From Parachlamydiales bacterium (GTDB lineage: Bacteria > Chlamydiota > Chlamydiia > Chlamydiales > SM23-39): DNA of 64,000 nt. The stretch is taken from assembly GCA_050302075.1 (NCBI GenBank), contig JBNLAH010000007.1, positions 1-64,000 of the forward strand, given 5' to 3'. The notes under the pieces were generated by a model that worked only from the letters and a program-made list of their open reading frames with translations, did not search any database and was not told the DNA's origin. A program made the translations under genes and the position numbers. Position 1 is the stretch's first letter; each line of letters begins with the position of its first letter. This document shows, one piece after another, positions 42,445-46,880 of the stretch.

Positions 42445-43797
42445 ATGACTTTTTTTCGAGAAAAACCATTTACTTTTTTTATTTTTATCTTTGCAGCTAT
42501 CGGTGGGCTCTTATATGGATATGACCTAGGCGTTATTTCAGGGACTCTTTTATTCATTGATAAAGAAATACCGCTTACAGCAACACAGACATCTTTGATT
42601 GTATCTGCAGTTTTAGGTGGTGGCTCAATTGCTACATTGATCTCAGGTCCTTTGGCAGACTGGGTCGGAAGAAAGAAAATGATTTTTTTCGCTTCAGTTA
42701 TTCTAATCTTGGGGACTGTGATATTAGCTATCGCCTACAATTTTTCAACTTTATTGATAGGAAGACTAATCCAAGGAGTGAGCGTCGGAATTATCACAAT
42801 TGTAGTTCCATTATATTTAACTGAGACCTCTCCTAAAAATATGCGAGGAAGAGGAGTTACAACCTTTCAGCTGATACTTACTTTAGGAATCTTATTAGCT
42901 TATTTGGTCAACATCTGGTTTGCAAAAGATGAGAACTGGAGAGGGATGTTTTTATGCGTTTTGTTCCCCGCTTCTCTTTTTTTCGTTGGTTCTATTTTTA
43001 TTCCAGAGTCTCCTATATGGCTATTTGGAAAAGGAAAGCATAAAAAAGCACAAAAGATGTTATTAAAACTGCGAAAAGAGAAAGATGCTGAAATCGAATA
43101 TGAAGAACTTTTATCCATACAAAAAACAACTAAACCTAGTATCGAAAAATTAAAATGGAAAAAACATTATAAGATCCCTTTAATCATCGCGCTTGGAGTC
43201 GGAATTTTAAACCAGTTAACTGGTATAAATGTAATTTTACAGTACATAACAATCATTTTAAAAGATGCAGGGTTAGCTCTAAATTGGATGTCACTTCTAG
43301 GATCAGCTGGAATCGGTTTAATCAATTTTATTACAACAATTTTTGCCTTTTCTCTAATTGATAAACTAGGAAGGCGAAAACTACTTTTAATTGGAAGTGC
43401 CGGAATAGTTTTTTTTCTATCAGTTTCTGGATTTATATCAATTTTCTTAATCCCGAGTTACATCAAAGGAACAATACTTTTGTTTTTAATGATCGGATTT
43501 ATCTGTAGCTTTGCTATAGGACCTGGTGTAGTTGTCTGGCTTGCCATTTCAGAAGTACTACCTAACGCAATTAGAAGTAAAGGGATGGGAATAGCTTTAT
43601 TTTTGAACTCGCTCTTTTCTACAATCTATGCTTCTATTTTTTTAAACTTAGTCAAATATCTTGGATATTCAAGTGTCTTTTTTATGAGCGCAATTTTCAC
43701 TTTGGTTTATTTTCTTTTAACTTATTACTTGCTCCCAGAAACTAAAAATAAAACATTAGAAGAAATTGAAACATATTTCAGAGGTAAGTATGAGTGA
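42445..43797 (+). CDS. MFS sugar porter (probable GlcNAc transporter)
   Basis: GGLLYGYD.GVISG, D.VGRK, PESP.WL, QLTGIN, GRR.LL, PETK.K.LEEI; substrate inferred from context. Confidence 0.9.
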   Translation: MTFFREKPFTFFIFIFAAIGGLLYGYDLGVISGTLLFIDKEIPLTATQTSLIVSAVLGGGSIATLISGPLADWVGRKKMIFFASVILILGTVILAIAYNFSTLLIGRLIQGVSVGIITIVVPLYLTETSPKNMRGRGVTTFQLILTLGILLAYLVNIWFAKDENWRGMFLCVLFPASLFFVGSIFIPESPIWLFGKGKHKKAQKMLLKLRKEKDAEIEYEELLSIQKTTKPSIEKLKWKKHYKIPLIIALGVGILNQLTGINVILQYITIILKDAGLALNWMSLLGSAGIGLINFITTIFAFSLIDKLGRRKLLLIGSAGIVFFLSVSGFISIFLIPSYIKGTILLFLMIGFICSFAIGPGVVVWLAISEVLPNAIRSKGMGIALFLNSLFSTIYASIFLNLVKYLGYSSVFFMSAIFTLVYFLLTYYLLPETKNKTLEEIETYFRGKYE

Positions 43798-44677
43798 AGA
43801 TATTTTTGTTGGTCTGGACGGAGGTGGAACAAAAACACAGTTGATTGTTGAAGATGCTAATGGGAATTTAATAGGAGAAGGAAGATCTGGCCCTTCAAAT
43901 ATTAGACTATCCGCAAGTGCTGCATGGAACTCTATATTTGATGCTTTGGAAAAAGCCTTAAAAAATACAGACATTTCTCTAAAAGATCCTCATTATCAGT
44001 TTCATGTAGGAATGGGACTAGCTGGCACTGAAATACTATCTAGCTGTGAAAGTTTTTTGAGTAAACCGCATCCTTTCAAGACATTAACTTTAAGATCTGA
44101 TGCATATACTGCTTGTTTAGGAGCCCATGATGGAGAAGACGGCGATATTATTATTATTGGAACTGGCGTAATTGGTTATCAAGTTTACAATAGCGTCGAA
44201 TCTCAAGTTAATGGCTGGGGATTCCCTCATGGAGATGAAGGCGGTGGGGCGTGGCTCGGAATGGAAGCTCTTAGGCTTACCTTGAAGTGGCAAGACGGTA
44301 GAGGTGAAAGATCAGAAATGCTTTCAGCTATTTATCAACAATTTAATTCTAGCTTAAATGAAATGGTGACTTGGGCCAACTCCGCAAACTCAACTAAGTT
44401 TGCCGAATTAGCCCCTTACGTTTTACAATATGCAGAGCAAAAGGATACAAATGCCCTTTTGCTATTACAAAAGAGTGCCAAAGAAATAATGCAAATTAAC
44501 CATGCTTTGACCAAAATATCAACAACAGCTCTTAAATGCTCATTGTTTGGCGGAATAGCTCCATTTATTGAGCCATACTTAGATAATGAACTTAAAGATC
44601 GCATTGTTGAAAGAAAGTATGACGCTGCCAAAGGAGCAATTTTAATGGTAAAAAAACAAGTTATGGAAAAACTATGA
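43790..44677 (+). CDS. BadF/BadG/BcrA/BcrD-type sugar kinase (N-acetylglucosamine/glucosamine kinase)
   Basis: GLDGGGTKT, SDAYTACLGAH, IGTG, GWGFPHGDEGGGAWLG. Confidence 0.85.
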   Translation: MSEDIFVGLDGGGTKTQLIVEDANGNLIGEGRSGPSNIRLSASAAWNSIFDALEKALKNTDISLKDPHYQFHVGMGLAGTEILSSCESFLSKPHPFKTLTLRSDAYTACLGAHDGEDGDIIIIGTGVIGYQVYNSVESQVNGWGFPHGDEGGGAWLGMEALRLTLKWQDGRGERSEMLSAIYQQFNSSLNEMVTWANSANSTKFAELAPYVLQYAEQKDTNALLLLQKSAKEIMQINHALTKISTTALKCSLFGGIAPFIEPYLDNELKDRIVERKYDAAKGAILMVKKQVMEKL

Positions 44678-45711
44678 CATCTTTAATGGAAAAAGAAGCT
44701 CTACAGGCTCCTTTAATCATTGAAAAACAACTTAAAGAGAACAAAGCAACGTTAGACCAAATTGCCAGAATCCTCCAAAAAAAAGAAATTAATTTTATTC
44801 AGACTGTGGCAAGAGGCAGCTCAAATAACGCAGCCCTCTATGCTAAATATCTTTTTGAAGATAATTTAAATATTGTTACATGTCATGCTGATTTGTGCAT
44901 GAGAACTGTCTATAAGGCAAACTTGAATCTTAAAAATAGTTTAATATTAGCTATTTCCCAGTCTGGAGAAAGCCCCGACTTAATTGAATATTTGTCATAT
45001 GCAAAAAAAAATAAAGCCTTCACGCTAGCTATCGTAAATACCCCTAACTCCCCTCTAGCAAAGGTAGCCGACATTGTTATCTTAATACATGCTGAGAAAG
45101 AAAAAGCTGTAGCTGCTACAAAAACTTTTTTAGCTACCTTGTCAGCTTTAGCTCAGTTTGTCGGTTATCTCAAAAAAGACAAAAGCCTATTAAACTTAAT
45201 AGACAAGCTACCAGAAAGATTACATGAGTGTCTTAATATAGAATCAGAAGCTTTTATTAGAGAATTTTCTAAAATAGATAATTTATTTGTAATTGCCAGA
45301 GGCTACCTTTTACCAATTGCAAAAGAGATTGCTCTAAAATTTAAAGAAACCTGCTCTATACATGCCGAGGCATATAGCAGTGCTGAAGTGCTTCATGGCC
45401 CCATGGCCTTAGTAGATAAAAACTTCCATGGACTATTTTTGTTCCAAAAAGATGCTAGCCGAGAATTTACACTAGATGTTTATCAAAAGTTTACAAAGCT
45501 AAAAGCTAAGGTTTTTTCGTTTTTGCCATCTGATTTATTAATACGCACTAATACAGATAAATTTTTGATTACCCCAAAATCTCTACATCCAACTTGTGAC
45601 CCATTGATTCAAATTCAAACATTTTACCCTCTTTGTGCAAAACTTAGTCTCAAAAGAAAAAAAAACCCAGATAATCCACAAAATATATCCAAAATCACAA
45701 AAACTACATGA
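44674..45711 (+). CDS. SIS-domain glucosamine-6-phosphate deaminase (NagB-II type)
   Basis: ARGSS..AA, SQSGESPD, E.AVAATK, ALKFKE, AEVLHGP; no glutaminase domain. Confidence 0.85.
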   Translation: MTSLMEKEALQAPLIIEKQLKENKATLDQIARILQKKEINFIQTVARGSSNNAALYAKYLFEDNLNIVTCHADLCMRTVYKANLNLKNSLILAISQSGESPDLIEYLSYAKKNKAFTLAIVNTPNSPLAKVADIVILIHAEKEKAVAATKTFLATLSALAQFVGYLKKDKSLLNLIDKLPERLHECLNIESEAFIREFSKIDNLFVIARGYLLPIAKEIALKFKETCSIHAEAYSSAEVLHGPMALVDKNFHGLFLFQKDASREFTLDVYQKFTKLKAKVFSFLPSDLLIRTNTDKFLITPKSLHPTCDPLIQIQTFYPLCAKLSLKRKKNPDNPQNISKITKTT

Positions 45712-46880
45712 CAAACCGTTTTTTAATTAAAGGGCTAAAAGTATATAGCGAAGAAAAAGTAATTAAGCATGGGGCTATCTTAGTAGAAGACGGAAAAATA
45801 GTTGAAATTTTTACTGATGATGAACACCAAAGATTCTGCGAGAAGGTAACATATCAATTCTCAGCCAACTCTCACTTAATCCCAGGATTCATTGATATGC
45901 ATATCCATGGTTGTGCAGGTTTTGATGTTATGGATGCAACAAGAGATGCTATTAGTACTATTTGCAAAACCCTTCCCAAAGAAGGGACAACTTCTTTTTT
46001 AGCCACAACAATGACTCACTCAAAAGAAAACATTGAAAACTCAATAATAAACATCAAAGATTTTCAAAAGTCTAACTATATTGGAGCTGAAATTTTAGGG
46101 ATTCATCTAGAAGGTCCATTTATATCCCCTAAAAAAGCTGGGGCTCATACCATTGCTAATATACAGAAACCGGACATTGTGCAGTTCAATAAATGGAGGG
46201 AGCTGTCAGAAGAAAATATTCGTTTAGTAACCTTAGCTCCTGAAGAGGACAAAGCAGATGAGTTAGTTGATTTTTTGCATAAAAACAATATTATCGCAGC
46301 CATTGGTCATAGCAATGCAAGTTTTGAAGAGGCCATTTCCGCAATAAATAACCATTGCATCTATGCAACACACCTATTTAATGCAATGAGCCCAATTAAT
46401 CAAAGATCGCCTGGATGCGCTATCGCATGTTTATTGCATAATGATGTCTACTGTGAACTTATTGCAGACAACATCCATATTCATCCTGCAATGGTTCATT
46501 TAGCGCAAAGGTTAAAAGGATATGATAGGCTTATTTTAGTCACAGATGCAATGAGGGCTAAATGCTTAAAAGATGGGACATATGACTTGGGAGGAAAAGA
46601 TGTAATCGTTAAAAATAATAAAGTTGCTCTTCAAGATGGAACATTAGCCGGAAGCGTCTTAAAAATGATAGATGGCTTTAAAAATGTCCAAGATAATTTG
46701 CAGTGCACTGTCGAACAGTTAATTAAAATGACTTCAACAAATCCCGCAAGAATCCTTAATTTATTAGACAAAAAAGGAACTATTTCGAAAGGGAAAGATG
46801 CAGATTTGGTCATATTAGATGAAAATTTCGAAGTTATTTTTACAACTTGTAGAGGAAAAGTCATATATCAAAAAGATTAA
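45708..46880 (+). CDS. nagA: N-acetylglucosamine-6-phosphate deacetylase
   Basis: PGFIDMHIHG, HLEGP, GHS.A, THLFNAM, VTDAM, LAGS. Confidence 0.95.
   Translation: MTNRFLIKGLKVYSEEKVIKHGAILVEDGKIVEIFTDDEHQRFCEKVTYQFSANSHLIPGFIDMHIHGCAGFDVMDATRDAISTICKTLPKEGTTSFLATTMTHSKENIENSIINIKDFQKSNYIGAEILGIHLEGPFISPKKAGAHTIANIQKPDIVQFNKWRELSEENIRLVTLAPEEDKADELVDFLHKNNIIAAIGHSNASFEEAISAINNHCIYATHLFNAMSPINQRSPGCAIACLLHNDVYCELIADNIHIHPAMVHLAQRLKGYDRLILVTDAMRAKCLKDGTYDLGGKDVIVKNNKVALQDGTLAGSVLKMIDGFKNVQDNLQCTVEQLIKMTSTNPARILNLLDKKGTISKGKDADLVILDENFEVIFTTCRGKVIYQKD

Follow-up and report, generated by a model that had tools for sequence, protein, structure and literature searches.

The Nag pathway of Shewanella oneidensis consists of the permease NagP, the kinase NagK (SO3507), the deacetylase NagA and the deaminase NagB-II (SO3506) (PMC2996990, citing Yang et al. 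2006); the NagK-NagA-NagB-II trio has been reconstituted in vitro, and NagP is a member of the GGP family (PMC2996990). A comparable set, NagP, NagK-IIA/B, NagA and NagB-II, makes up the N-acetylglucosamine (GlcNAc) carbohydrate utilization (CUT) system of Xanthomonas campestris (PMC4173781). We analyzed a 64,000-nucleotide stretch (the window) of contig JBNLAH010000007.1 from a Parachlamydiales bacterium (assembly GCA_050302075.1, a draft of 89 contigs that is 96% complete), which holds at 42445..46880 four overlapping genes for a sugar porter, a BadF-type kinase, a NagB-II-type deaminase and NagA. The operon probably serves proton-coupled import of GlcNAc and its cytoplasmic conversion to fructose-6-phosphate (Fru-6P), acetate, and ammonia, mainly for carbon and energy.

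All four open reading frames (ORFs) lie on the plus strand and are free of internal stops. The first encodes a 450-amino-acid sugar porter of the major facilitator superfamily (42445..43797), identified with Pfam, NCBIfam, structure alignments, and a comparison of pockets. It is followed by a BadF/BadG-type, NagK-II-like sugar kinase of 295 amino acids counted from the ATG, a predicted GlcNAc kinase (43790..44677; Pfam, NCBIfam, and tree), a NagB-II-type deaminase of 345 amino acids with a double SIS domain (44674..45711; NCBIfam and structure alignment), and the 390-amino-acid GlcNAc-6-phosphate (GlcNAc-6P) deacetylase NagA (45708..46880; NCBIfam and alignment to PDB 2vhl). The respective Pfam matches were Sugar_tr (E 6e-99), BcrAD_BadFG (1e-31), two SIS domains (2e-31), and Amidohydro_1 (2e-36). 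The ATGA stop/start overlaps at 44674 and 45708 that the original prediction had described are present, and the porter and kinase genes overlap as well, by 8 nucleotides (ATGAGTGA, 43790-43797), a feature which that prediction had not mentioned; AGAGGT sits 4 nucleotides upstream of the kinase ATG. The four intact, overlapping genes and their catalytic motifs were thus confirmed, and no regulator turned up among the ORFs at 36-53 kb, the search for one having been confined to that region. The overlaps suggest that the genes are co-transcribed, in which case any promoter must lie in the AT-rich intergenic stretch of 190 bp that precedes the porter (42255..42444, plus strand). Promoter-like sites occurred at chance level (20 versus 21.1 +/- 5.0 expected), with none above chance in that stretch, and an Rfam search over 41000-47600 gave no match and hence no riboswitch. 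A GNAT gene convergent with the operon ends 9 nucleotides past NagA. Relative to the orthologues on a metagenome contig (L081), the operon genes showed dN/dS values of 0.043-0.078, that is, purifying selection.

NagA exceeded the cut-off of TIGR00221 (405 versus 225.65 bits) and aligned end to end with 2vhl, its closest solved relative (E 6e-102). The motifs DMHIHG (at 63), HLEGP (133), IGHS (199), THLFNAM (221), and VTDAM (278) aligned with those of 2vhl, and H65, H67, E135, H201, H222, and D280 were intact; we take these to represent the HxH motif, the metal-binding Glu/His/His set, and the catalytic Asp. The SIS protein is a stand-alone double SIS protein without a glutaminase domain, its best NCBIfam match (NagB-II, NF046059) leads the next family by 115 bits, and NagB-II structures are closest to it, 7kqa being the nearest solved relative. 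When the protein was aligned with 8eol, the catalytic residues named in PMC10201695 (S52, S97, E227, and H243) corresponded to S50, S95, E225, and H241, and four of the six residues of the allosteric GlcNAc-6P site named there were kept (R49, Y61, R211, and K219, as R47, Y59, R209, and K217). A duplicate of GlmS was considered as the source of the deaminase and rejected, as the two share 33% identity and are kept apart in the tree.

The kinase carries the ASKHA motifs DGGGTKT (at 10), GTGV (124), and GWGFPHGDEGGG (142). The structure nearest to it is that of a probable GlcNAc kinase, 1zc6 (E 8e-42); next come 2e2n and then 8zo3, a kinase of N-acetylmuramic acid (MurNAc) and GlcNAc (E 3e-15). 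Among 80 metagenome loci fetched through a kinase alignment, the kinase homologue was accompanied by NagA, its most constant neighbor, in 47, by this porter in 10, and by all the other three genes in 3. As a proxy for linkage, 21 longest-contig sizes were common to the top 120 kinase and top 120 porter matches, versus 0.7 under a jitter null.

The porter scored 311 bits against the NCBIfam sugar porter model TIGR00879 (cut-off 237.8) and has the PESP/PET and DxxGRR motifs. Its D27 and R107 align with Asp42 and Arg142 of STP10, so that the proton pair is retained, as are, by alignment, most of the STP10 sugar contacts (PMC6345825). The pocket has a signature specific to the subfamily (Y24, F141, N256, Q266, S389, and S392): among the 119 nearest relatives, Y24 and F141 were each conserved in 118, Q266 in all 119, and S389 in 111, while N256 was the commonest residue at its site (71). 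Four glucose-type porters of the chlamydial family have F, N, Y, W, and Q at these five sites. Judged by its pocket, the porter would have a substrate other than glucose, and we predict it to be a GlcNAc/H+ symporter; we infer a specificity for GlcNAc for both the porter and the kinase. Its top matches were sugar porter models, and no GGP model was among the matches listed (25 of 36 families), which separates it from the GGP/FucP family of NagP. Neither is it a duplicate of the genome's own glucose-type porter, to which it is 38% identical and from which it stands apart in a separate clade. That second porter (112828-114105 of contig C4) adjoins a class I aldolase gene, a context kept from its own locus (L178) in three others (L186, L191, and L193); H or N replaces its proton-coupling Asp, and it may be a uniporter.

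In the mechanism that we propose, free GlcNAc would enter through the porter by proton symport and be phosphorylated by the BadF-type kinase to GlcNAc-6P, from which NagA would release acetate to give glucosamine-6-phosphate (GlcN-6P). NagB-II, possibly activated by GlcNAc-6P, would then convert GlcN-6P to Fru-6P and ammonia, and such activation could replace the missing regulator. The kinase, deaminase, and NagA lack hydrophobic leaders and are therefore placed in the cytoplasm. GlmS, MurA, Pgi, a protein of the Pfk family, class I aldolase, glucokinase, the second porter, and acetate kinase are all encoded in the genome. Fru-6P would pass on via Pgi, the Pfk family, and class I aldolase, and acetate via acetate kinase, so both products have outlets. 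For ammonia the outlet is at best a normally catabolic glutamate dehydrogenase (GDH), because glutamine synthetase was not found in the genome and only a NAD-GDH-like protein of 1024 amino acids is present; a reading of the genome as devoid of GDH, based on one Leu/Trp-dehydrogenase-like protein of 378 amino acids, was dropped once this frame had been found. Gene identities and residues thus support the PTS (phosphotransferase system)-independent route from GlcNAc to Fru-6P named in the original prediction, with its specificity predicted from sequence, whereas the use of amino sugar as a nitrogen source finds no backing. The contrast it drew with Chlamydiaceae, as dependent on glucose-6-phosphate only, holds in a less sharp form, given the second glucose-type porter and the glucokinase found here and a glucokinase reconstructed in the chlamydial ancestor (PMC9816063).

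Several observations weigh against the proposed route. Both the kinase, whose best and only NCBIfam match is NagK_SO3507 (NF046058; 227 bits versus a cut-off of 370), and the SIS protein (308 bits versus 430) remain below the cut-offs of their models, many kinase relatives bear the JGI label "glucosamine kinase," and two allosteric residues of the deaminase are changed (S77 to C75 and Y215 to L213). The literature searched yielded no bacterial GlcNAc transporter of the sugar porter type, so nothing characterized is at hand for comparison with the porter. Glycoside hydrolases of families GH18 and GH20, which could supply monomer, were not found in the 96% complete genome either, and the GH19 search was uninformative, as no control matched. 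The sugar would come from free GlcNAc generated by the host (from digested prey walls or host glycans) or from the GH3 enzyme discussed below, and the suggested feeding on chitin or glycans is not demonstrable as an attack on polymers. Nor does the operon point to a particular host, as had been proposed: GlcNAc is too widespread for that, and no data on a host turned up.

The substrate could instead be another amino sugar, such as glucosamine, N-acetylgalactosamine, or MurNAc, which would suit the glucosamine kinase labels, the presence of 8zo3 among the kinase relatives, and the low NagK score. NagA enzymes can, moreover, accept N-acetylgalactosamine-6-phosphate. A kinase acting on glucosamine only would, however, make NagA superfluous, yet NagA is what the kinase is most constantly found with. 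The tagatose-bisphosphate (class II) aldolase was not found in the genome, the class I LacD type not having been searched, and neither NagB-I nor a MurQ-like protein gave a match with the queries used (a single one for MurQ). The affinity of the SIS protein to NagB-II structures also speaks against such substrates, and we regard them as quite unlikely.

GlcNAc, whether from the host or from the cell's own peptidoglycan turned over by GH3, could also be salvaged as GlcN-6P or GlcNAc-6P for UDP-GlcNAc synthesis, sparing the host glutamine used by GlmS, with the deaminase acting as an overflow valve. MurA is present, and the single GH3 of the genome has a hydrophobic leader and a NagZ-type KHFPGHG...DSH motif; the lack of glutamine synthetase makes GlmS reliant on imported glutamine. 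The genome also encodes a GlmU-like acetyltransferase and a UDPGP-family (eukaryote-type) uridylyltransferase (window 29599-30834, minus strand), a candidate for the UDP-GlcNAc pyrophosphorylase part of a GlmU split in two. Many gammaproteobacterial loci hold the kinase and NagA alone, and NagP of Xanthomonas is also involved in using GlcNAc that derives from peptidoglycan (PMC4173781). Against this stands the finding that none of 66 genomes of the family had a GlmM above the cut-off; their phosphohexomutases are only of about 550-620 amino acids (about 589 here; 135494-136687 of contig C1), although GlmS and MurA are kept, and salvage would therefore need a promiscuous mutase. GlmS is retained in all three operon-bearing genomes, and the deaminase is conserved (dN/dS 0.078). 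The GH3 query matched 84 of 103 family genomes, most of them operon-free, for which reason GH3 was also rejected as a partner of the operon. Salvage to UDP-GlcNAc, put forward in the original prediction, therefore appears unlikely, and catabolism of GlcNAc remains our preferred explanation.

The operon turned out to be rare in chlamydiae, in agreement with what had been supposed. NagA matches occurred in 29 of 401 genomes of a phylum sample, of which only that of one genome (G306) was orthologous (56% identity), the other 27 being 29-39% identical. Kinase matches occurred in 15 of 400 genomes, with G306 alone close (64%) and the rest at 27-33%. The NagB-II model, at a threshold chosen to exclude GlmS (E<=1e-45), matched 2 of 400, one further genome being unscored. 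Within the family, only 3 of 103 genomes, from two genera (this one, G306, and G401), had a further SIS match that was stand-alone and reached E 1e-100 or better; the remaining SIS matches were weak and at GlmS level. In G306 and G401, both of one other genus, and in L081, all four genes follow obg, an EamA gene, and an ORF, and the order of the flanking locus (35980..41750 here: ABC metal transporter, rplU, rpmA, obg, EamA, and an ORF of 189 amino acids) is the same. Sixteen further genomes of the family were examined, and none had nag genes beside obg; in 3 of them, less than 3 kb of downstream DNA was available. The operon proteins are 50-66% identical to their G306 and G401 orthologues and Obg is 64-65% identical, as expected for vertical descent after a single gain. 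By the names attached to its neighbors and orthologues, the genome is chlamydial. A draft of 89 contigs and relatives that are mostly non-chlamydial might raise the suspicion that the genes are a decaying relic or a gammaproteobacterial fragment, either mis-binned or inserted recently. The mid-contig position beside rplU-rpmA-obg, found again in three independent assemblies, refutes this; dN/dS values below 0.08 and an ameliorated composition (third-position GC content within 0.5 standard deviation of the genome, 979 ORFs) also speak against it, and we consider it extremely improbable.

The NagA proteins of other chlamydiae stand apart. A NagB-I gene adjoins nagA at two loci (L048 and L051) and is fused to it at a third (L058), and no porter, kinase, or NagB-II gene was seen beside the stand-alone NagA in the 15 loci inspected. 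Seven of these 15 NagA or NagB-I/NagA proteins have a hydrophobic, signal-peptide-like leader (L048:2244-3428, L049:6117-7346, L050:5743-6960, L051:5967-7154, L056:5701-6945, L058:5443-7356, and L062:4399-5712) and possibly work on GlcNAc-6P outside the cytoplasm of the bacterium. Other chlamydial arrangements include fusions of 914-969 amino acids (L059:6294-9038 and L060:4200-7109, the latter leader-bearing) in which a BadF kinase is joined to a GKRP/MurQ-like SIS region and to an additional, unassigned part, and a different sugar cluster (L065:844-4479) of a sodium:solute symporter, a 364-amino-acid protein without a Pfam match, and a BadF kinase.

FastTree trees of all four proteins, built on subsets of the match tables and leaving out the proteins of a named chlamydial metagenome-assembled genome (MAG), grouped the window's proteins with those of G306 and G401 (support 90-99) among mostly non-chlamydial sequences and separated them from the second porter and GlmS of the same genome and from the NagA proteins of other chlamydiae. 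In an approximately unbiased (AU) test on 31 NagA rows (LG+G4, quick search), a single chlamydial NagA clade was rejected (p=0.029). Named NagA relatives were mostly Bacillota, with two Gammaproteobacteria, and those among the top 120 porter matches were five Gammaproteobacteria, one Coxiellaceae, one Proteobacteria, one Deferribacterota, and the chlamydial MAG. At one metagenome locus (L089), the order porter-kinase-deaminase-NagA is identical, and TolQ, TolR, and the kinase cluster with proteins of Gammaproteobacteria MAGs; neighbors in L085 cluster with Gammaproteobacteria bacterium GWE2_37_16 and those in L097 with Coxiella sp. DG_40 (of 10 proteins, 9 could be found, and 7 clusters gave organism names). 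Dot/Icm genes occur at seven related loci. The original suggestion of horizontal acquisition is thus supported: an old transfer is likely, and we infer that the ancestor of two genera acquired the operon once, long ago, from a pool in which Gammaproteobacteria dominated. A further weakness of our account is that, in these fast trees, support is only 81-90 at the nodes where the chlamydial clade meets its sisters; the donor and the direction of transfer are therefore argued from rarity and nesting. Some nearest sisters are high-GC contigs of other context, a contig scan with NagA gave a single Jeotgalibacillus locus and no donor genome, and plasmid searches gave only distant homologues (36-39%; rhizobial, sphingomonad, and Deinococcus). 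Three high-GC contigs (L082, L092, and L095) hold a variant operon of porter, kinase, a further gene, and NagB-I; in L082 the further gene, in NagA's place, encodes a PIG-L-family deacetylase. Tentatively, the porter might define a dedicated GlcNAc/H+ symporter subfamily within the sugar porters, whose members travel with the BadF kinase and with NagA between bacteria that live inside microbial eukaryotes (Legionellales/Coxiellaceae-like Gammaproteobacteria and the present chlamydial clade). If so, the operon would constitute the first complete pathway of Chlamydiota for breaking down amino sugars; it would have passed between co-resident endosymbionts and would mark a vacuolar niche fed by host digestion of bacterial or fungal walls.

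Two orphan ORFs precede the operon. That of 189 amino acids (41181-41750) is common only to operon-bearing loci among the 19 examined (25-48% identity), and that of 131 amino acids (41859-42254) has a paralogue on contig C1. Just downstream of the operon (window 47496-50008, plus strand) lie two tandem genes for Legionella_OMP-family outer-membrane proteins, the N-terminal region of the first being rich in cysteine; the pair is also found in L081 and shows no link to the operon in G306 or G401. At 50651-52498 (plus strand), a protein of 615 amino acids has a C-terminal half that looks leucine-rich-repeat-like, as judged by eye from the translation.

GlcNAc catabolism in chlamydiae was not mentioned in the literature searched, which included the consulted parts of PMC9666466, PMC9816063, PMC8242063, PMC7449678, PMC13229535, and PMC11070183, nor was there a match in a supplement of PMC9816063 or in 11 of 16 supplementary files of PMC8242063; other supplementary tables and subscription papers may list the genes. 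The operon is neither widespread in the environmental chlamydiae sampled nor, within that literature, already described. Gene gain in these bacteria is an established theme (PMC9816063), the type of pathway is known, and its chemistry is textbook, so the addition is modest: within the literature searched, what is new is its presence in chlamydiae and the type of transporter, an uncharacterized sugar-porter subfamily that is likely a novel kind of GlcNAc importer. For one chlamydial clade, the operon extends the range of predicted carbon sources past glucose, glucose-6-phosphate, and amino acids, and it offers a clean, testable instance in which a complete operon, once transferred into an obligate intracellular lineage, became fixed there. 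GlcNAc also suggests itself as a supplement for cultivation or host-free activity assays of uncultured chlamydiae that bear the operon.

Compared with the systems described, the chlamydial locus resembles that of Shewanella in having a permease and a BadF-type kinase in place of a PTS, NagA, and an SIS-fold NagB-II whose catalytic residues are the same, and the order kinase-deaminase-NagA occurs in loci related to the operon. It differs in its transporter, a sugar porter rather than a GGP-family NagP, in a NagA nearer to Bacillota and Legionellales-like enzymes, in a kinase and deaminase that score under the Shewanella model cut-offs, and in having no chitinase and, at the locus (regulators elsewhere were not searched), neither NagR nor a TonB-dependent receptor. 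With Xanthomonas, a host-associated, non-chitinolytic bacterium, it shares the cytoplasmic chemistry, and 7kqa is nearest to its SIS protein; unlike it, the operon has no NagQ or NagR repressors (as far as the locus goes), Nix receptors, or glycoside hydrolase set, and the lineage is obligate intracellular. The gammaproteobacterial loci L085, L089, and L097 (porter-kinase-(deaminase)-NagA) have the same families at 40-54% identity and the same porter pocket signature, with the same order in L089; they are likewise uncharacterized, and many of their Dot/Icm-bearing relatives hold only the kinase and NagA. The 27 other environmental chlamydial genomes with a stand-alone NagA or NagB-I/NagA share the predicted NagA reaction, but with a distant enzyme of a separate clade and no operon partners beside it. 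By this comparison, the operon would work like the Shewanella and Xanthomonas route without being a member of those regulons.

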